From Candidatus Heimdallarchaeota archaeon (GTDB taxonomy: Archaea; Asgardarchaeota; Heimdallarchaeia; Hodarchaeales; Hodarchaeaceae), in NCBI GenBank assembly GCA_011364965.1, contig RDOB01000004.1, positions 64,001 through 128,000 of the forward strand: a stretch of DNA of 64,000 nt, in the 5' to 3' direction. Below the pieces are notes generated by a model. That model did not search any database and had not been told where the DNA came from. It worked only from the letters and a program-made list of their open reading frames with translations. Shown piece after piece: positions 159 through 12,363 of this stretch. The stretch's first letter is position 1. Every line of letters starts with the position of its first letter. Made by a program: the position numbers and the translations under genes.

Positions 159-2330
159 CTATGTAGGTCTAAGACCTAATCGAGTAATAAATGTTGAATA
201 GAAAGCAAAACAATCAACTGATTCTTTTTCGTCTAATGTTACTGAAGAATGGACAATTCGATTTCTAAGATTTCTGAAATGAGTTATTTTTTTATCACTG
301 GGAAGATCAAAACCTCGTTTACGTAATTCATGCACTTGAAGTTGAAATATAGGTTTTAATTGGCCAGAACTTGAAACAATTTGTTGATAGCGCGTAGAGA
401 GCAAATTTTTGACTGCAGCGTCTGCTTTAATGACAAACAATTCAAAATTATCTTCTTTGAAAGCATGTTTAGCTTGATTCCATAAAACACGAACATAATT
501 GATATTCTTCTCTGCCTGTTCAGGTTCAAGAATTGAACTAGGGACTTCATTGTCTACTTTTTCTTGATAGTCGTGGACAACAAAGTTGATTCGATCTATC
601 ACCTGACTATAACTTAAATAAGAAGAGAGATTTATAAAAATCACTGGAATAAGAAGTAGGATTGTAGGAGCAGCAAGTATAAAAAAAGCTGTTGCCACAT
701 TTGGTAAATAATAAGGAAGTAGGAAATCTGAAAATAATATTAAACTTATTAAATTCACAAAATTAAGTATTAATAATCCTAAAAAGGGGAATAACACCCA
801 TTCTATTCGTCTTAATATTCGTTTTGAGACTATAAGGGTTTCATTTTCAGATGATTCAATAAAATTCAGCAAAGCATAAGTACGGAACGGTACACTAGGG
901 ATTCTTACAAGGATTGATTCACTAGGAACTTCTTTGATGCTAAAGACGCCACGGAAGCTATATTTAATAAATTTAAAAGTTTCTTTCAATGATAATGAAA
1001 ATTCCCATTGGCTTACAGGCCCATGTATTCGATAGAGTTTCCCCTGAGTATCCAGATATACTAAATATAAAGGAAAGGCTATAATGGTAATAAATGTTAT
1101 AATTGAACCTAGAACATTCCAGGCAAAAAGTGGTGGGATATGATAGTCGAAATGAACAAAAAATTGACCTACACTGGAAGATTCAGGAGATATCACCAAA
1201 TAATACAATCCCGAGTCAACTGCGTCTAATAATATCTCAAAATTTTTATCTATTGTTTGTAAAGCCTCGTAGCCAGTATATAATGGATTTGAATTCTGTT
1301 TTCCTTCATCGAAGATTTCTACTGTGGCAAATTCCAGTATTTTTGCATCAGTAGTATTTGGACCAAATACATGAATAAATACATCTGATCTGCTAGTGTT
1401 TACATAAAACCAAAAAAAATACACTCTTCGAGGAGTAAAACCCTGAACTTGTCTAATTGATAGAGTATGATTATAAGGCAATTCAATTGCAGTTTCAAAA
1501 CTATAACCAAATCCTTCAGACGTTATAGAGATATTATATATCCCAATTGGTGATGTGTCTGCTGGTTTATGTCGAATTTTAATAAAATATTGATCAGAAA
1601 CACTTGGATTCCAAGAATAATTAAAAGATCCGCTAATCTCGGTTTCGGTTAGAACTGGATTTTGAGGATAAAGTTCACGGTAAATCGTGATTTTTGCTTC
1701 AAATAGTACCGCAGGGGTTATTTCTCTCAATGAGAGTGTACTATTCTGATTTTCGTCTAAACTTACTTTCCAGTAGTGGGTTTCATGATCAATTGAAAAA
1801 TTTGCTTGAAATTGCGATTCATCGATGGCTAGTGCAGAGACTTCATTGAAACCACTCGAAGGGATCGTTGCTAGAATTGAATAGGAATAATTCTCTGATT
1901 TATCAGGACGAATGTCATCAAGTTGTATTCTCCAATCACCAACAATAGATACTTGCCACATCCCAAGATATTTGCTAGGGTGTATAATTTGTACATCTTC
2001 ATTGTCTAATTTAATATTAGAAGGATTATATAGAGATACATTAATTCCAGATCTTGGAATGATGGAAAAATAAACTAATTGACCTCTATTGAGATCTTGA
2101 AGAATCCAATTGTGAGTGTGGGATTCATTTGTGAACTCATTAGATTGAGAAATTGAATCTGTTAAAAAAAAGGTATTATTATCATCTTGGATCGTTTTAG
2201 GCATTATAAGTAATGAAGAGGGAGGTTCTAGAAAATTCTGACTTGAACTAAAATCATTAGTTTCAAATAAAAAGCTTGAAATTATAAGACAAAGAAAGAG
2301 TGATAATAAGAACGCTTTTAGTGGTTTCAT
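159..2330 (-). CDS. Receptor-like membrane protein: signal peptide, ~380 aa beta-rich ectodomain, 3 TM helices, C-terminal HEPN-like domain
   Basis: Hydrophobic N-terminus; repeated YWKV/YFIKI/YYLVI beta modules with NxS/T sequons; TM segments near aa 403-425, 510-535 and 545-570; C-terminal RNLRNRIVH motif (nt 249-266). Confidence 0.75.
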   Translation of the reverse strand: MKPLKAFLLSLFLCLIISSFLFETNDFSSSQNFLEPPSSLLIMPKTIQDDNNTFFLTDSISQSNEFTNESHTHNWILQDLNRGQLVYFSIIPRSGINVSLYNPSNIKLDNEDVQIIHPSKYLGMWQVSIVGDWRIQLDDIRPDKSENYSYSILATIPSSGFNEVSALAIDESQFQANFSIDHETHYWKVSLDENQNSTLSLREITPAVLFEAKITIYRELYPQNPVLTETEISGSFNYSWNPSVSDQYFIKIRHKPADTSPIGIYNISITSEGFGYSFETAIELPYNHTLSIRQVQGFTPRRVYFFWFYVNTSRSDVFIHVFGPNTTDAKILEFATVEIFDEGKQNSNPLYTGYEALQTIDKNFEILLDAVDSGLYYLVISPESSSVGQFFVHFDYHIPPLFAWNVLGSIITFITIIAFPLYLVYLDTQGKLYRIHGPVSQWEFSLSLKETFKFIKYSFRGVFSIKEVPSESILVRIPSVPFRTYALLNFIESSENETLIVSKRILRRIEWVLFPFLGLLILNFVNLISLILFSDFLLPYYLPNVATAFFILAAPTILLLIPVIFINLSSYLSYSQVIDRINFVVHDYQEKVDNEVPSSILEPEQAEKNINYVRVLWNQAKHAFKEDNFELFVIKADAAVKNLLSTRYQQIVSSSGQLKPIFQLQVHELRKRGFDLPSDKKITHFRNLRNRIVHSSVTLDEKESVDCFAFYSTFITRLGLRPT

Positions 2331-2521
2331 AATTTTTCCTTCGCTTACATGATCCGCTAGAAAAAAACCTTGAACCTTTTTTTAAATCTGAAATTATCTA
2401 TAACCAATTTTATATATTTATATAATAAATTTACCTAATTAATTGATAGCTTTTGGAGGGATTTTCCCGTTTGAATAATTTTATTAGCCCCGTCCAAGGT
2501 TTATATAAGTGAGGAAAAAGG

Positions 2522-3151
2522 TTGAACCAAAATATTCGAGTTTTTAAAAAGAGACTTCAGATTGCAGAAAAGAAATGGAATGCAGTTCAAGCTCAATCAA
2601 TCAAAGCCATAAATACAATACTTGGGACTTTATCTAGATTAAATCTAATCCAACAAAGAGGTGCTTTTTCGGAGGATCTACTCGCAAAATTTCCTGATGT
2701 TCCTGAAAGAATATCCTTTCACCTGGCAGAATTGATAAATAAGAGCATTCATGATTTGAATATATACTTAAGTCAATTAAACGAAATTGTTAATGAAATG
2801 CGCAAAATAGAAGAGCAATTTCGGCAAGACTATTTATTAATAATCAAAACACAATATTCGGAGGGTAATCAATCCTGGTCACATGATCTGGAAACTCTTG
2901 AACAAGCAGAGAGGACTTTTCAAGAAATTGTTGATATGTATGATCGCGAATTATCACTCAGGAAAGAAATACTTAGCACAACTCAAAATAGCTCCTTATT
3001 TCAACCGAATTCACTAATAATCTATCTAACATTGTGGGCAGGAGAGATATATATTGAACATAACCGAATTCATGAATTAATTGAAGAATTCATGCAAGCA
3101 GAAAAGGTTTGTGAGAGAGTTCTCCAGTCTCAAGATTCGATGAGTCCTTAA
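2522..3151 (+). CDS. Helical protein resembling eukaryotic C1orf109/AIRIM
   Basis: 209 aa, helical; LAKFPDVPERI and EIVDMYDRELSLRKEIL plus two Trp match the C1orf109 pattern as I recall it. Confidence 0.55.
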   Translation: MNQNIRVFKKRLQIAEKKWNAVQAQSIKAINTILGTLSRLNLIQQRGAFSEDLLAKFPDVPERISFHLAELINKSIHDLNIYLSQLNEIVNEMRKIEEQFRQDYLLIIKTQYSEGNQSWSHDLETLEQAERTFQEIVDMYDRELSLRKEILSTTQNSSLFQPNSLIIYLTLWAGEIYIEHNRIHELIEEFMQAEKVCERVLQSQDSMSP

Positions 3152-3177: not shown

Positions 3178-4590
3178 TTAGCTTGCATGAAAGTCGGTAG
3201 TATTTAATATAGAGTCTATTGTACCATTTTGTTGAGCTTGAACGAGTAAAGCTTGAATTTTATCATTGATTGAATATTCTGGTTCTCCCTTTTCTAATAA
3301 TCCCTTGACAAGCTTCATTGAAAGGGCTAAATCTGTTTTTGCAAGATTTTCATTTCCAGCTTTACATATTGCTACTCCTCTTACAGAGGTATTTGCAGGA
3401 CCCATGACGGATGTGAAAACACATCTTTTGTCGCCAGCTGTTAGATGGTCAGGAGTGTGTCCGATCAAATCAGAACTCATTGACTGAATTGCGGAAAATA
3501 GTCCAGTATATAGACAAACTTCTTGTCCCGCAGGTCTATGACTTGCAAATAGAGGTAAACCTCCATCATCAAAGATATAAACCTCTGATTCCGAAAAAAT
3601 TTTACCAAGAATACGAAAACGTTCATCTTCTTCAGTAGCATCGAAAAGATCTCTTTTTCTCTCATTTATTGGGGAAATATAGTCGTCTCCATAGTTTGCT
3701 GACTGATTTAAGAAATTTAATGATGCAGATTTTGGGAAAACGTCATCTATAGAGTTAAGGTCTGTTATTATCAACAAAGAGGTGAAACTAGAAATTTGGG
3801 GGTTAACAATATTATTTAGGTATATTTCAAACTCATCTCCAAACGACTTGGCAACTTTTTTGGATATCAAATTTAAATCATGTAGATTAAGAGGAGAAGA
3901 AGAGCTGATAGAAATAAAAATTGCTTCAAGAGATTCAAGTTCCTCTGGCATAGAAGTAACCAATTTTTCTCCAATTTGATTAATTGAAGCCTCTAATGCA
4001 CTCTCAGCGTCTTTAGCGGCAGAAATTCCATAATATAAGCTTTTGGATGCTCCAAACAAACACATCAAATCAGGAAATGAAACACCGGGATTTAAAGAAG
4101 GAGTCAAGCTGGATAACACACAATCTATGAATATTAGATAATTCCATTTACCATTTTCATCAGAAAAGTCAAAATTAAAGTAATTGGGACCAAAAAGCTT
4201 TCGTTTCTGAGGGTTTGGATTTTTGGATACATCAATAAACAGAGGAATCGAACCAGAAAACTTTATAGAGCCAGAAATTCCCCCAAGAGCTCTTAATGTT
4301 CCTTCGTCGGAAGAATTAAAAATAAAGATTAGAAAATAGGAATTTAAAAGACTTTGGATCTGAGATAATGTTGTAACTGAATCAAAAGTCACGACTTGAT
4401 CACATATTGTATCTCCAATTGCTGTTGGAGTTAATAACAAGAGAGGAAGCCGAGATTCATCTCGGGCCGATAGATAATCATGTACGATTTTCATCTCGTT
4501 TGATAGATTATCACCAATAAATACAATTTTACCACGTGGCCTGATGTATTCAAGAAAAGGATTATTTTCAGCGATTAAACTTGTATTCAT
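3178..4590 (-). CDS. Degenerate FtsZ/tubulin-fold protein fused to a C-terminal longin/roadblock-like domain
   Basis: aa ~165-278 follow the FtsZ T7 loop and C-terminal domain pattern; aa ~330-450 contain YIFDDGGLPLF...LYTGLFSAIQSMSSDL, a longin-like pattern. Confidence 0.65.
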   Translation of the reverse strand: MNTSLIAENNPFLEYIRPRGKIVFIGDNLSNEMKIVHDYLSARDESRLPLLLLTPTAIGDTICDQVVTFDSVTTLSQIQSLLNSYFLIFIFNSSDEGTLRALGGISGSIKFSGSIPLFIDVSKNPNPQKRKLFGPNYFNFDFSDENGKWNYLIFIDCVLSSLTPSLNPGVSFPDLMCLFGASKSLYYGISAAKDAESALEASINQIGEKLVTSMPEELESLEAIFISISSSSPLNLHDLNLISKKVAKSFGDEFEIYLNNIVNPQISSFTSLLIITDLNSIDDVFPKSASLNFLNQSANYGDDYISPINERKRDLFDATEEDERFRILGKIFSESEVYIFDDGGLPLFASHRPAGQEVCLYTGLFSAIQSMSSDLIGHTPDHLTAGDKRCVFTSVMGPANTSVRGVAICKAGNENLAKTDLALSMKLVKGLLEKGEPEYSINDKIQALLVQAQQNGTIDSILNTTDFHAS

Positions 4591-4974: not shown

Positions 4975-6813
4975 ATGGATTTTGAAGTCATTAAGACGGA
5001 AGGTTGGGGAAAATTAGGTAAATTGAATAATGATGTCGAGATACTTACTCCCAATATTATTGATACATCTTTGTTTAAAGGAAGTAAAAATAAAGGATTA
5101 TCTTTTGAATGTATAAGCTATCCTTCTTTACAAAATCAGGGTAAGGATATTAATTCTATAAAATCCTTTTATGATTTATTTCCTAAAGATTTCAATGAGA
5201 ACCATAAATTCAATTTTGATTTTCACATTATACCTTGGGATTTACCAACTATTTATCTTGGAAATATTAAATCCTATTTAGAGAAAATTAGAGCATTAGA
5301 AATTAAAGAGAATGCAGAAGAACCAAATAAATTTTTCGTTGTGAACATTCCATACAGAAAATCAAAAGAGAATATCTTTGAATTATTAAAGCAATCAAAA
5401 CTTATCAAAGGAGTAATTCTCGGAGATATTTCATCCTTCTTGACAAATCCCATCAATTTACTACATTATATCAAATGGGTTAACCCTTGGGCTCAGAATG
5501 ATAAAATATTTCTAGCTTCGGGTGTACCAAAAAGCTTTATCCCTTTATTATCCTATTTGGGAATAGATATCTTTGATACAATGTATCTAGAAATGCAATC
5601 AATCACAAATTTTCCTAATTTAGAGTTATTACTTGAATTAAAACAATCCAAAGAATCTATTCTTGAAACAATACATCATACTCAAGAAGCATTAAGATTG
5701 GGCAAATTACGGGATTTAGTAAGGATTTATGCTAATTCCTTTCCTCCATTAAAAACAATTCTAAGATTGATTGACAAAGAATTAAACCTAGAGTTAGGGA
5801 ATGCCTTATATACATCTAGTACGCTTTATTGTACAGATGAAACAGATTTTACAAGGCCTGAAGTGACACGATTTCGAAAGAGAATAAAAGAACGATATTT
5901 CCCTCCGGATTATTTAGCTGGAATAATTTTCCTTCCTTGTTCTGCTAAAAAACCCTACTCTCAATCAAGATCTCATCAGATGTTCCAAGCCAGTATTCGA
6001 AAACGGATAAAAAGAAAACGCCATCTTATTCATGAAGTTATAATTACGAGCCCTCTTGGCATTGTTCCTCGTGAATTGGAGTATACATTTCCCGCGGCCC
6101 ACTACGATATTCCTGTAACAGGTGATTGGAGTGAGATTGAAAGAAATTTGTTAAAAGAGGATATAACAAACTTTTTGGGAAAAATCAACCCAAATCTGCC
6201 AATAGTAGGATATGTTGAGGGACCTGAGAAGGAAGTATTGGATTCTATCTCTAAAAAGGTAAATAGACCAATGTATCTTGTTTCAGAAGATTACAAATCA
6301 TTAACTTCGAAAGGTGCTTTATCGGAGTTTTCTACCTTATTAGCTGATGCATTCGAAAATATATCCCTAATAAAAGTCGAAGATCAGACAATACGCTTCC
6401 TTAAGGCGATTGCAGACTTCCAATTTGGTAAAGGAGTAGGAAAACAGCTTTTCTCAGGAAATATCAACATATTTGGAAGAAAGGAATTAGGGTTACGGGT
6501 TAAGAGAAACGAAGAGCATCTGGTTACATTCAACCCAGTTAACGGATTTCTAACACTTTCATTACAAGCAGCGAACTTAATATTAGACAAAACTCCCAAT
6601 ATAGTGGTTTTTGATGGAGAAAAAATAATTGGATCAACAATATTCTCAAAAGGAATTATAGAAGCTAATTCAGAGATACGATCTGGAGATGAAGTCATTG
6701 TATTAAATTCTAATAGACAGATTATTGGTGTGGGGACATCTTACCTTGCTGGAGACTTATTAGTGAGAATGAAGAAAGGAAAGGGAATTTCCATAAGAAA
6801 AAAGGTGAAATGA
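4975..6813 (+). CDS. arcS: Archaeosine synthase alpha subunit (TgtA2/ArcS)
   Basis: TGT-like N-terminus, FLPCSAKKPYSQSRSH, TSPLGIVPRELE, C-terminal PUA domain; abuts the RaSEA gene. Confidence 0.92.
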   Translation: MDFEVIKTEGWGKLGKLNNDVEILTPNIIDTSLFKGSKNKGLSFECISYPSLQNQGKDINSIKSFYDLFPKDFNENHKFNFDFHIIPWDLPTIYLGNIKSYLEKIRALEIKENAEEPNKFFVVNIPYRKSKENIFELLKQSKLIKGVILGDISSFLTNPINLLHYIKWVNPWAQNDKIFLASGVPKSFIPLLSYLGIDIFDTMYLEMQSITNFPNLELLLELKQSKESILETIHHTQEALRLGKLRDLVRIYANSFPPLKTILRLIDKELNLELGNALYTSSTLYCTDETDFTRPEVTRFRKRIKERYFPPDYLAGIIFLPCSAKKPYSQSRSHQMFQASIRKRIKRKRHLIHEVIITSPLGIVPRELEYTFPAAHYDIPVTGDWSEIERNLLKEDITNFLGKINPNLPIVGYVEGPEKEVLDSISKKVNRPMYLVSEDYKSLTSKGALSEFSTLLADAFENISLIKVEDQTIRFLKAIADFQFGKGVGKQLFSGNINIFGRKELGLRVKRNEEHLVTFNPVNGFLTLSLQAANLILDKTPNIVVFDGEKIIGSTIFSKGIIEANSEIRSGDEVIVLNSNRQIIGVGTSYLAGDLLVRMKKGKGISIRKKVK

Positions 6814-7902
6814 TTGGTTAATCTTTTGGTTGCTTCAGAAATAGCTAGAATACGTAGAGAGTATCTTGAACTTTTGGATCCTGATTCAACAGGAAAAATT
6901 TGGCATCGAATTGACGAAATGGAAGACAATATTGTAATTACGATGGTGATCCCATCTAGGGGATGTAGCTGGGCTTTGTCGGAAGCAGGAGGGTGTTCTG
7001 TGTGTGGGTATGTAAATGATTCATCTAGAGACAAAGAAATTCCTAAACAGAAAATATTGAGAGTATTGAATGAAGTTTTACATCAAATTCCGCAAAAAAA
7101 ATATGTAGAACTTAAAATTTTTAACTCAGGAAGTTTTTTTGACAATAAAGATTTACCAAAAGAATTTAGAGAGGAATTATTGAAAGTTATAACCGTTTCG
7201 GAAAAAATTTCTAAATTAACCGTTGAATGCAGACCTGAATTTGTTATACAAAACCTAAATGATATAAAAGCTGCTTGTAAATTAATAAAACAAATCAAAA
7301 TGGAAATTGGACTTGGATTAGAGAGCTCAAATAATTCGATTTTGGTGAATTGTTGGAATAAAGGAACAACTCTTGAAGAGTACACTGAAAGCGTTAAAAT
7401 CCTTCAATCTCTGAACATTAGGATAAAAACATATGTTTTTGTTAAACCTCCCTTTTTAAGCGAAGCAGAAGCAATAGAGGATACATTAACTACGATTCAG
7501 CAGGCAATTGCCTCAGGAACTGATGTGGTTTCGGTAAATCCTTGTGTAGTGCAAAATGGAACTCTAGTGAGTTTTCTCTATAAAAATGATAAATATCAGC
7601 CTCCATGGTTATGGAGTGTTCTAGAAGTTATCAAAAAAACTCGTGAGAATTTTCCGGAATTGGAATTGATTTGCGATCCTACAGCTGGAGGTAAACCTCG
7701 AGGAGCTCACAACTGTGGAAAATGCGATAAAGAAGTACTCAATAGAATAAAAAAAATAGTTCAAGGAGAAAAAATGACGGAATTTGACATAAATATCTGT
7801 TCTTGTTATAAAACATGGAAATTCTTAGTCGAATCACCAGTAGAGATGATTAGGATTAGAAATCTTTCAAAATTGCGTAAACTCAATCCATTAATGGAGT
7901 GA
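6814..7902 (+). CDS. raSEA: Archaeosine biosynthesis radical SAM protein RaSEA
   Basis: RGCSW-x6-GCSVCGY cluster motif, KIFNSGSFF, ECRPEF, YQPPWLWS, RGAHNCGKC. Confidence 0.9.
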   Translation: MVNLLVASEIARIRREYLELLDPDSTGKIWHRIDEMEDNIVITMVIPSRGCSWALSEAGGCSVCGYVNDSSRDKEIPKQKILRVLNEVLHQIPQKKYVELKIFNSGSFFDNKDLPKEFREELLKVITVSEKISKLTVECRPEFVIQNLNDIKAACKLIKQIKMEIGLGLESSNNSILVNCWNKGTTLEEYTESVKILQSLNIRIKTYVFVKPPFLSEAEAIEDTLTTIQQAIASGTDVVSVNPCVVQNGTLVSFLYKNDKYQPPWLWSVLEVIKKTRENFPELELICDPTAGGKPRGAHNCGKCDKEVLNRIKKIVQGEKMTEFDINICSCYKTWKFLVESPVEMIRIRNLSKLRKLNPLME

Positions 7903-7919
7903 ATTATACTTAATTTTTC

Positions 7920-9086
7920 CTATGTTTTACGAATCGCTTGAATTGCTTTATATAATTCTCCATTTTTCCCAAAAATCTCTGATTCCTCATGTTTTTCTTT
8001 TAATTCCTCTAAATATTTCTTTGATAATTTATCAATTTTTTTAGGAAATCGAACATAGAATCCAACATGCATGTCTCCACGCCTATTACTATTTGGGATT
8101 GGAAAACCCTTATTTCGAAGAGTATGTATATACCCAGATTCAGTACCAGGTTTAATGGAAATGGTTTCATTTCCATCAATCGTCGGAACTATTAATTTTG
8201 TCCCCAATATAGCGTCAGTATAACTAATTGGGTATTCTAATAGAATATCTGAACCATTTCTTTGAAAGAATGGATGAGAGGCAACATTAATGGCAAGAAG
8301 TAAATCACCTGATGGACCACCTAGTTCTCCAGGGCGTCCTTCTCCTCGAAGTACTACATGCATACCTGAATCGACTCCTGCGGGAATATCAGCTTCTACA
8401 GTACGAAATTGCTTCACCTTTCCCAATCCATCACACACTTCACATGCTGCTCCCCGGGGTAATGATTTTCCTTCACCATTACAGCGGGGGCAAGTCGTTA
8501 TATTAACAATTTGACCGAAAGCAGACCTTTGCACCTGACGAAGTTCCCCCGTTCCCTGACAGTAACCACATTCGTCTAATGATTTACCGGGTTTTACTCG
8601 TGAACCGTGACAAGTAGGACACTGAGCCCAATTAGGAACTTTTATCTTCTTTTTTAAACCATGAACCGCTTCATCGAAAGAAAGATCAAGATTTAATCTT
8701 ACATCTTGACCTCGCCTTGCTCGTGGACGAGAAGAACGGGAACGAGACCCTCTTCCTCCAAAAGCGCTGAATAAATCTTCAAAAATTCCAAGGCCACTAA
8801 AAAGATCATCAAGCCCCATACCAGAGAAATCATGAAATGAAGCTCCATTCAGACCAGAATGGCCAAACTGATCATATCTAGCACGTTTTTCGCTATCAGA
8901 TAAAACTTCGAATGCTTCTGCTATCTCTTTGAATTTTTCTTCCGCATTTGGATCATCAGGTTTCATATCTGGGTGATATTTCCGTGCTAGGCTACGAAAG
9001 GCCTTTTTTATCTCTTTTAAATCAGCAGATTTTGAGATACCCAGAACTTCATAGTAATCGCGTTTCTTTTGGCTCAGAATAATCAC
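7920..9086 (-). CDS. dnaJ: Chaperone DnaJ (start may be CTG at 9077)
   Basis: J domain with HPD, G/F-rich region, four CxxCxGxG-type repeats, C-terminal domain. Confidence 0.97.
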
Positions 9087-9109
9087 CCAGATTTGGATCG
9101 ATCAGGAAT

Positions 9110-10969
9110 CTAATCATCATCTACAATTTCGTAGTCGACATCCACAACTTCGGACTCCTCAGTTCCAGGTGTTCCTGCTTGAAAACCTGGACCTCCAGGT
9201 GCGCCTTGGAAACCTCCTGTCGGACCAGATTGTTGAGCTTGAGAAGCGTATAGTTTCTGAGCAAGCTCATGAGTGATTTTCTCAAGTTCCTCAGTCTTCT
9301 TATTTATCTCATCAACAGAACCAGTTGATAATATACCCTTTAGGGATTTAATCAAATTCTCTGCTTTTGATTTAGTTCCTGCATCAACTTGATTTCCAAG
9401 ATCTTTGATCATTTTCTCTGTTTGATAAATCAAGGAATCTGCTTTATTACGAGCCTCAGCTTCAGCAAGCCGTTTTGAATCTTCATTTTCGTATTGTTTT
9501 GCTTCATCGACCATTCTCTGGAAATCTTTCGCTGATAACCCACTATCACTTTTAATTGTTATTTTCTGCTCATTTCCTGTACCTAAATCTTTTGCAGAGA
9601 CATTAACTATACCATTTGCATCAATATCAAATGTAACTTCAATCTGAGGAACCCCACGAGGAGCAGGAGGGATTCCCACTAGTTGAAAACGTCCCAAGGT
9701 GATATTACCAGCAGCCATTTTTCTTTCACCTTGTAAAACATGTATTTCGACTGAGGGTTGGTTATCTGCTGCAGTAGAAAATATCTGGCTCTTTTTAGTT
9801 GGAATTGTAGTATTTCTTTCAATTAACCTAGTAAAAACTTGTCCCAATGTTTCAATACCCAAGGAAAGAGGGGTTACATCAAGTAATAGAACATCCTTTA
9901 CTTCCCCCATTAAAATTGCTGCTTGAACTGCAGCTCCAAGAGCAACACATTCATCGGGATTAATTTCCTTTGTCGGTTCTTTTCCGAAGTAGCTTCTAAG
10001 AGCTGATTGTACTGCAGGAATACGAGTTGACCCTCCAACAAGTAATATTTTATCAATATCTGATGGTTGTAGCTTAGCATCGGCCATTGCTTGACGCGTT
10101 GGACCCATAGCTGCCTCAATTAGGTCAGCAATCATTATTTCAAACTTTGATCTTGTCAATGTAAGATTCAAATGCTTCGGACCAGTTTGATCTGCGAAAA
10201 TATAGGGCAAATTAATTTCAGCAGATGTTTTTTGAGAGAGTTCAATTTTTGCTTGTTCAGCTGCATCTTTCAAACGTTGCATAGCACTAGGATCTTTTGA
10301 TAAATCTAACCCTGAACTTTTCTTGAATTCTTCAATCATCCAGTCCATGATTCTTTGATCAATATCATCGCCTCCTAACCGATTATTTCCAGAAGTTGCT
10401 TTCACTTCGAAAACACCCTCAGATAGCTCTAGAATTGAAACATCAAAGGTACCTCCACCGAGATCAAACACTAAAATCGTATCTTCTTCTTCTTTATCCA
10501 ATCCATATGCCAAGGATGCACTAGTGGGTTCATTAATAATTCGTAATACATCCAATCCAGCAATTCGACCTGCATCTTTCGTTGCTTGCCTTTGAGCATC
10601 TGAAAAATAAGCAGGAACTGTCACCACTGCTTGTTTTATTGGTTCACCTAGATACGCCTCAGCATCCCTTTTAAGCTTCTGAAGTATCATTGCGCTGATT
10701 TCAGGGGGTTTGTACACTTTTCCATCGATAGTGACGGTGTAATTTGTACCCATCTCTCTTTTTATTGATCGAATAGTCCTCTCAGGGTTAGAGATAGCTT
10801 GGCGTTTTGCTAAAATCCCAACTACTCTTTCTCCTTCCTTTGTGATAGTAACAACGGAAGGAGTGATTCTTTGTCCTTCTGCATTAGGAATAATTACTGG
10901 TTTTCCACCTTCCATCATTGCGATGGCAGAAAATGTTGTTCCTAGATCTATACCAATTGCTCTAGCCAT
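9110..10969 (-). CDS. dnaK: Chaperone DnaK (Hsp70)
   Basis: [29 protein letters not shown]; ATG at 10969 preceded by AGGTGA. Confidence 0.99.
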
Positions 10970-10979
10970 AATAATCACC

Positions 10980-11624
10980 TTATTCTTTTTTCGCTATAAC
11001 CACTTTTGTTGGTCTTAGTAATTCATCATTTAACATGTATCCAGCCTGAACTTCTTCAATAATTATATCTTCATCTACATTATCGTCTTTTTTTGTATAT
11101 ACAGCTTCATGGTAGTTGGGATCAAATGGTTTCCCCACTGCATTGATTCTTGTAACTCCTTCATTTTTTAATATAGAATCAAAGTGGGTAAAAACCGCTT
11201 TAAATCCATCAACCAATATTTTTTCCTCTGTGGTAGATACAGAGAAAAGAGTAGCATTCGCTCTTTCAAAACTATCTGCCAAATCTATAAGTTTTAGTAA
11301 AAGCTTACGATTCCCTTGTTTCGTTAATCTAGAGAATTCATTTCTATTCCGTTTTTCCAAATTTTCATAATCGGCCAAAGCACGCAAATATCTATCATAT
11401 AATTTAGTATATTCAGTCTCTTTTTCCTCTAGTTTTTCATAAAGCTGTTTTATTTCTTTTAAAGCTTCATTTTCCGAAGATAATGTTGTTTTAGAAGCTA
11501 TTTCATCTTTACCTTTAGATTTGGATGTTTGATCTATTTTCTCAGCTTCTTCGATTTGATAATCGATATCAACGACTTCTGGTTCGCTATTACTTTTTTC
11601 ACGTTTCTGAGCCATTAGAATCAT
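10980..11624 (-). CDS. grpE: Nucleotide exchange factor GrpE (alternative start 11615)
   Basis: [41 protein letters not shown]; directly upstream of dnaK. Confidence 0.96.
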
Positions 11625-11625
11625 C

Positions 11626-12363
11626 TCATTTGGTATTTGCGTTCATCGCTGCCTCAAGTTTAGTCATCAGATTTTTTCCTTGTTCAGGTAATAGATTTCT
11701 ATCTTGGAGTCGTTTTAAGGATTCTAAGAGATCTGTACGTCTGGTTTTAATTTCTTTCTCTATCAAATCGACAGTGATAGGTGAAGAGCTTGAATAAATA
11801 GTATATGCAAGCTCTCGATCCTTTCGATGCGCATCCCCGTCCAATTTCATGGAAATAGTTTCATTCAGTTCTCCAGTAATAGACAATTTCCGACTCAAAA
11901 GCATAGTTTCTATTGATTCTAGATGAGTAAGAACTTCATCAAGTTGTTGTATTTTTTGAGCAAAATCCACATCCTTATCTTCAAGAGCTTTCCCTATACT
12001 TAAGGCAAGATCTTGAATTAACAATTCTACAGGATTTTTAGGATTTTTAACGTTAGTTTCCTGATCATCAAGGTTAATTTCAAAAACATCGAAACTAAAT
12101 GCATGCTGACTTAAGGTTACCCGAACAGAAATATTTTTTGATATACTGTAGAGTTTTCTTGCTGGACCTTTAGGACCTGCTTTCCAGTCGTAAGTGATCC
12201 ATCCTTTCTCTAGTAAACATTGGAGATGCCTCTGAAGAGATTGTTGAGATAACTCGATCTCTTGTGAAAGCTGAAAGAGATATTTTGGCTCTTGAGCAAT
12301 AGATCGTAGCAGTGTACGTCGAGTATCATTACTCATTAGCTCAAAAAACTCATTTTCATTCAC
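11626..12363 (-). CDS. ArsR-type wHTH regulator, probable heat-shock regulator leading the dnaK operon
   Basis: MSNDTRRTLL...SQQSLQRHLQCL...GPARKLYSI wHTH followed by a helical region; 1 bp gap to grpE. Confidence 0.82.
   Translation of the reverse strand: MNENEFFELMSNDTRRTLLRSIAQEPKYLFQLSQEIELSQQSLQRHLQCLLEKGWITYDWKAGPKGPARKLYSISKNISVRVTLSQHAFSFDVFEINLDDQETNVKNPKNPVELLIQDLALSIGKALEDKDVDFAQKIQQLDEVLTHLESIETMLLSRKLSITGELNETISMKLDGDAHRKDRELAYTIYSSSSPITVDLIEKEIKTRRTDLLESLKRLQDRNLLPEQGKNLMTKLEAAMNANTK

Follow-up and report, generated by a model that had tools for sequence, protein, structure and literature searches.

A single-copy Asgard archaeal gene related to both CINP and C1orf109/AIRIM

The window analysed here (the whole 64,000-nucleotide stretch of DNA, C12:64001-128000) carries a gene for a small helical protein that is an Asgard member of the CINP/C1orf109 superfamily (AIRIM; plant OPNR/OAP1) and that descends, with a probability of about 0.8, from a single gene predating the duplication that produced the two eukaryotic paralogues. 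This estimate covers the identity of the protein together with its evolutionary history, and excludes its inferred function. Late 60S maturation and replisome proteostasis depend on an AAA+ unfoldase for which CINP and C1orf109/AIRIM are indispensable cofactors, both of them linked to human neurodevelopmental disease. That the archaea most closely related to eukaryotes possess one such gene dates the adaptor to before eukaryogenesis, and with its single subunit the Asgard protein may be a simpler system in which to study how lids direct Cdc48-type motors. The archaeal family itself is already known, and the gene described here is a further member of that published Asgard family; what is added is the family's equal closeness to C1orf109/OPNR and to CINP, and the failure to find a dedicated ATPase or an Rlp24 alongside it.

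The original prediction, made from the sequence of the window, had described the protein as possibly unreported. This part of it did not stand, as Asgard homologues of CINP had been described by Köstlbacher et al., who recorded them from five major clades of Asgard archaea and from no prokaryotes outside that group, and who placed eukaryotes next to the Hodarchaeales CINP sequences (bioRxiv 10.1101/2024.07.03.601958; Nat Microbiol 2026, PMC12962969). The family studied here is almost certainly the same Asgard CINP/CINPL family, as judged from the occurrence of one homologue per genome; it is likewise an Asgard family found in several clades including Hodarchaeales, and both the distribution and the tree obtained here fit that description. 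The published text, in which C1orf109 occurs in a reference title only (PMC12962969), ties the family to CINP alone, whereas in the present analysis it is equally related to C1orf109/AIRIM/OPNR. The relatedness of CINP and C1ORF109 to each other has been noted elsewhere (PMC9004343).

The positions of the gene, its motifs, its candidate expression signals and its neighbours are collected in Table 1. The TTG codon is the sole start that retains helix 1, owing to an in-frame stop three codons upstream. Homologues within the genus share the aligned position of the start, where most have TTG or GTG and one subgroup alone has ATG, and it may be that this conserved weak start codon keeps expression low. 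The 209-residue helical open reading frame was found as predicted, with every quoted motif in place: the early Trp is W19, LAKFPDVPERI corresponds to residues 54-64, FQEIVDMYDRELSLRKEIL corresponds to residues 133-151, and the late Trp is W172.

Table 1. Coordinates of the CINP/C1orf109-family gene, its motifs and candidate signals, and neighbouring genes in the window
Feature	Position	Strand	Remarks
TATA-like AT-rich stretch, possible promoter	2408..2432	+	in the 191-bp intergenic region
GAGG, possible Shine-Dalgarno sequence	2511..2514	+	7 nt 5' of the TTG; read from the sequence
CINP/C1orf109-family gene	2522..3151	+	209 aa; TTG start; TAA stop included
W19 codon, helix 1	2576..2578	+	kept in 96-100% of Asgard, C1orf109-type and CINP-type sequences
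L54-F57, loop/short helix between helix 1 and helix 2	2681..2692	+	
M139-Y-D-R-E143-L-S-L-R147, helix 4	2936..2962	+	family motif M-x3-E-x3-K/R, in all three groups
Y168-L-T-L-W172-A-G-E175-I-Y177, helix 5	3023..3052	+	motif Y-L-x2-W-x2-E/Q-P-Y, best kept in CINP
Predicted 723-aa membrane protein	159..2330	-	no Pfam match; divergent to the CINP-like gene
470-aa open reading frame	3178..4590	-	convergent with the CINP-like gene; no Pfam family at E<=0.001
612-aa archaeosine-synthase-like protein	4975..6813	+	DUF5591 + TGT_C2 + PUA (Pfam)
362-aa radical-SAM protein	6814..7902	+	Pfam; no gap after the preceding gene
dnaJ, dnaK, grpE and ArsR-type HTH gene, in a row	7920..12363	-	bacterial-type Hsp70 operon

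CA109-like (PF15011) was the sole Pfam family to score above its cut-off for the window protein (E 9.8e-10; 39 bits against a cut-off of 27; profile positions 7-155 of 161), and a scan of the genome with PF15011 gave 37.7 bits for the same gene. Matches to HEPN families, at E 0.015-0.05 and below their cut-offs, were dismissed as helical noise. When a profile built from an alignment of 25 Asgard sequences (A1) was searched against all PDB sequences, human CINP was matched in four PDB entries (E 4.4e-10, 42.6 bits, chain residues 13-180), whereas human AIRIM/C1orf109 was reached only at E 0.065. The corresponding search with a profile restricted to Hodarchaeales (A2) gave CINP at E 2.5e-9 and left human AIRIM unmatched at E<=1. 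Profiles were needed to see these relationships, as a single-sequence phmmer search of the PDB with the window protein retrieved neither CINP nor AIRIM.

Comparison with HMMs of the two eukaryotic clades, both of which are biased towards Asgard-like members because the eukaryotic sequences were chosen by similarity to the Asgard profile, gave 72 bits (CINP) and 54 bits (C1orf109/OPNR) for the window protein and 31-87 bits to both HMMs for the Asgard sequences as a whole, while the median between the two eukaryotic clans themselves was only 33-37 bits. Some relatives from Hodarchaeales scored higher with the C1orf109-clade HMM than with the CINP-clade HMM. The Asgard protein is therefore related to both CINP and C1orf109/AIRIM, and not specifically to C1orf109. 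The homology to C1orf109 that had originally been proposed is borne out by the Pfam match, by the fold and by the reciprocal HMM scores; its specificity is not, since human CINP is closer than human AIRIM and the Asgard sequences branch outside the C1orf109 clade (see below).

An exhaustive search with an Asgard profile, covering 1.84 billion representative proteins, yielded 168 hits, made up of Asgard sequences and two eukaryotic groups. The CINP-type group contained animal CINP, the fungi Piromyces and Spizellomyces, and an Acrasis protein annotated as CINP; one of its members (P0116) matches PDB CINP at 1e-8. The C1orf109-type group contained a lettuce protein annotated 'At5g43822' (P0083, plant OPNR; 155 bits to PF15011), together with proteins from a green alga, Pilobolus, Synchytrium, Paratrimastix and Pharyngomonas. 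Animals, chytrid fungi, plants and Heterolobosea have both paralogues, as judged from the database hits and the literature (PMC12332008). Two eukaryotic database proteins with apparent CA109-like fusions, P0073 (1636 aa, with MutS_III) and P0091 (341 aa, with a V_ATPase_I fragment), were set aside as probably merged gene models.

Column-by-column conservation showed a core common to the Asgard, C1orf109-type and CINP-type proteins, comprising W19, M139, E143, K/R147, W172 and E/Q175-P-Y. The window protein carries the superfamily signature as W19, M139, E143, R147, W172, E175 and Y177, with I176 where most sequences have P. Some features of the N-terminal part are held in common with C1orf109, and some of the C-terminal part with CINP. 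Towards the N-terminus, Q23 and L54 are common to the Asgard and C1orf109/OPNR proteins and not to CINP, with L54 kept in 88% of the C1orf109/OPNR clade and in 33% of CINP sequences, while at the C-terminal end CINP preserves Y168, W172 and Y177 better than the C1orf109 side does. Human CINP, which is about 17% identical to the Asgard protein, shares with it W19 and the M-x3-E-x3-K and Y-L-x2-W-x2-E/Q-P-Y motifs; the conserved L54/F57 loop motif is present in the Asgard protein and missing from CINP. The Asgard protein, unlike CINP, is the product of a single-copy gene and has no heterodimer partner in its genome.

An AlphaFold2 model generated from the A1 alignment (pLDDT 88.3, pTM 0.82) was all-helical, with six helices. 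In a Foldseek search of the PDB with this model the top matches were exclusively the CINP and C1orf109 chains of 8CIH, 9GWJ, 8RHN and 9LGO, headed by 8cih_A (E 5.9e-4, TM 0.62/0.68) and with the C1orf109 chain 9gwj_A about equal (TM 0.66/0.68, rmsd 3.8). Structural alignment with VIA-align gave Z-scores of 16.6, 16.3, 15.8 and 15.5 for the four CINP entries, the highest being 9gwj_B, which has the same five/six-helix fold and superimposes with an rmsd of 3.0 over 187 residues; the best unrelated designed bundle reached Z 13.7.

The distribution of the family across Asgard genomes, which the original prediction had named as a check, was surveyed with profile A1, and 128 of the 400 genomes were found to contain the gene, in one copy each. 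It was present in 20 of the 21 species of the window genome's own genus and in both genomes of a further family of the same order (f2), in 80 of 89 genomes of the Thorarchaeota group (f31 and two further families), in 17/19 genomes of f12, in all five of f28, and in the single genomes representing f8, f29 and f30. With the same profile, and in genomes that are mostly 80-95% complete, so that an absence is to be read as 'not found', none was detected in f4, which belongs to the same class as the window genome (0/31), or in f20 (0/135), f19 (0/14), f6 and f7 (0/12 each). Nearly all Hodarchaeales and Thorarchaeota genomes surveyed have the gene, while the other Heimdallarchaeia and the largest Asgard family gave no match. 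The f28 members (L012, L015, L018 and L020) are extended by about 40 inserted residues following helix 3, a feature absent from most other clades, although individual f2 and Thorarchaeota rows of A1 contain separate insertions there.

In the human complex, cryo-EM has shown that two C1orf109-CINP heterodimers form a lid together with the N-domains of a 4:2 SPATA5:SPATA5L1 hexamer (PMC12019325, PMC11055677). In Arabidopsis, OPNR (At5g43822, the C1orf109 equivalent), OAP1 (the CINP equivalent) and OAP2 bind CIP111-CDC48D and are needed for the extraction of RPL24C from pre-60S particles (PMC12332008). By analogy with these human 55LCC and plant OPENER complexes, it is tentatively suggested that the window protein could associate with itself and sit as a small adaptor or lid on the ring of N-domains of a Cdc48/VAT-type AAA+ unfoldase. 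Like 55LCC (SPATA5-SPATA5L1-C1orf109-CINP) and OPENER (CIP111-CDC48D-OPNR-OAP1-OAP2), the present genome has both an adaptor-family protein and Cdc48-type ATPases; in contrast to them, only one adaptor gene was found, and no AFG2A/B-type pair or Rlp24.

Genes for four double-ring ATPases of the Cdc48 type, which have N-domains, are present in the genome. Three of the proteins, encoded at C13:154301-156493, C12:19238-21538 and C13:125388-127568, are 48-57% identical to one another, while the fourth, encoded on contig C15, is divergent at about 37%. The N-domain of this divergent paralogue (C15:75183-77429; L052) matches CDC48_2 and not CDC48_N; within the genus it was detected in only 6 of 21 genomes, and it is without close relatives elsewhere. 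A search for an AFG2-type ATPase, in which two of the four paralogues were compared with the PDB, gave better matches to archaeal VAT and p97 than to AFG2A/B. Across genomes, the number of Cdc48 copies does not track the gene, there being two in a Thorarchaeote that has it and three in an f20 genome that is without it, and a mostly unresolved tree of 16 Cdc48 proteins (one row of which, G200 b, was probably mis-extracted) contained no clade restricted to gene-bearing genomes. Likewise, a search of the 87% complete genome for a second, Rlp24-like eL24 gave none, the one Ribosomal_L24e match being a 74-aa open frame. Rlp24 cannot therefore be the substrate of the adaptor proposed here, given a genome without it. 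Comparison of gene neighbourhoods in six family-level clades, with flanks of 1.5-4 kb, showed only the CINP-like gene itself in common.

These results bear on a different account of the function, one that concerns only this part of the interpretation and that may well be correct, although, with a weight comparable to that of the adaptor reading, at somewhat less than even odds: the protein would be a true homologue with no AAA+ partner in archaea, working by itself or with different partners, perhaps in replication or checkpoint-like scaffolding, and the link to the ATPase would have arisen only in eukaryotes. Such an account is favoured by the failure to find an AFG2-type ATPase, a co-distributed Cdc48 paralogue, Rlp24 or conserved neighbours, by the many Asgard families that are without the gene and yet all have Cdc48, and by the first description of CINP as a replication and checkpoint factor (PMC12962969). 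Against it, the only structurally defined role of the pair in humans and plants is on the N-domain ring of the ATPase, and a conserved interaction surface is suggested by the residues that the three groups have in common. If the protein does serve as a lid on a Cdc48/VAT-type unfoldase, a wider proposal, itself less likely than not, is that a machine resembling 55LCC and OPENER predates eukaryotes. In Hodarchaeales and Thorarchaeota a single, self-associating protein would then steer an ordinary unfoldase to a ribosome-assembly or replisome substrate, with the CINP-AIRIM heterodimer and the AFG2A/B pair being products of later duplications in an adaptor-ATPase system already present in archaea.

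The relationship of the Asgard proteins to the two eukaryotic paralogues was addressed with a maximum-likelihood tree (LG+C20+F+G4, 79 rows, unrooted), which resolved into three clans: Asgard (100/97), C1orf109/OPNR (99/92), and CINP together with protist CINPs (83/60). All of the Asgard rows fall outside both the eukaryotic CINP clan and the C1orf109/OPNR clan, and the eukaryotic stem joins between the Hodarchaeales-side and the Thorarchaeota-side Asgard subclans. An AU test of an 'Asgard + CINP' grouping was uninformative, as among three clans any two lie trivially on one side of a branch. The position outside both eukaryotic paralogue clades, together with the single copy in each Asgard genome, argues for descent of the Asgard proteins from the pre-duplication gene. 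A single ancestral gene would, on this evidence, have been duplicated before the last eukaryotic common ancestor to give the two subunits of the CINP-AIRIM heterodimer.

Since the tree is unrooted and the eukaryotes were sampled by similarity to the Asgard profile, it also permits a duplication older than the split between Asgard archaea and eukaryotes, followed by loss on the Asgard side. The Asgard protein would in that case be an orthologue of CINP only, the C1orf109-type copy having been lost in Asgard archaea. This history is in keeping with the best matches among solved structures, which are to CINP both by sequence and by Z-score, with the treatment of the family as CINP in the published analysis (PMC12962969), and with a rooting that the three-clan topology allows. 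It is nevertheless unlikely, as it requires an extra early duplication plus a loss in every Asgard lineage, and the Asgard proteins retain the C1orf109-type residues L54 and Q23, pass the CA109-like model, and give about equal bit scores with the HMMs of both eukaryotic clades.

The converse reading, in which the Asgard protein is the archaeal orthologue of C1orf109/AIRIM specifically, alongside a separate CINP orthologue, extant or lost, is very unlikely. CA109-like was indeed the one Pfam family above its cut-off, Q23 and L54 are held in common with the C1orf109/OPNR clade and not with CINP, and the preference of some Hodarchaeales relatives for the C1orf109-clade HMM points the same way. 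In the PDB searches, however, AIRIM was reached at E 0.065 (A1) or not at all (A2, E<=1) against about 1e-9 for CINP, the window protein itself scored higher with the CINP HMM than with the C1orf109 HMM, the Asgard clan lies outside a C1orf109/OPNR clade with support of 99/92, and the genome contains no second copy. Descent from the single gene that preceded the duplication is the simplest reading of the resemblance to both paralogues.

A generic resemblance between helical bundles or coiled coils, or a eukaryotic contaminant or recent transfer, is scarcely credible: although unrelated designed bundles also reach Z 13-14 and the single-sequence phmmer search found no CINP or AIRIM match, profiles are significant in both directions, the motifs are conserved, the CINP chains score above all other bundles, and the homologues, present in 128 of 400 Asgard genomes, make up a separate clan that is deeply structured internally. 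The window genome (2.97 Mb in 16 contigs; 87% complete, 3% contaminated) has a single gene of the CINP/C1orf109 family. Contamination or recent transfer is excluded by the setting of this gene, which lies on a 525-kb contig of even GC content (0.31-0.40) among ordinary archaeal genes (an ArcS-like gene with DUF5591, TGT_C2 and PUA domains, a radical-SAM gene, dnaJ-dnaK-grpE, glnA and others), and this is reinforced by the occurrence of the gene in nearly every species of the genus. The archaeal origin assumed in the original prediction was in this way confirmed, and its coiled-coil alternative contradicted. The sources of the close homologues are recorded as Hodarchaeales, Heimdallarchaeota or Promethearchaeota.

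Several further features of the window were observed around the gene. Scans for Rfam families and tRNAs gave no matches in the window. The predicted membrane protein on the other side of the intergenic region contains, in its C-terminal tail, the sequence RNRIVH, which fits the Rx4H motif of HEPN domains. Further downstream, the adjoining archaeosine-synthase-like and radical-SAM genes form a pair that presumably corresponds to ArcS-RaSEA for archaeosine synthesis, and they are followed on the opposite strand by the Hsp70 operon.
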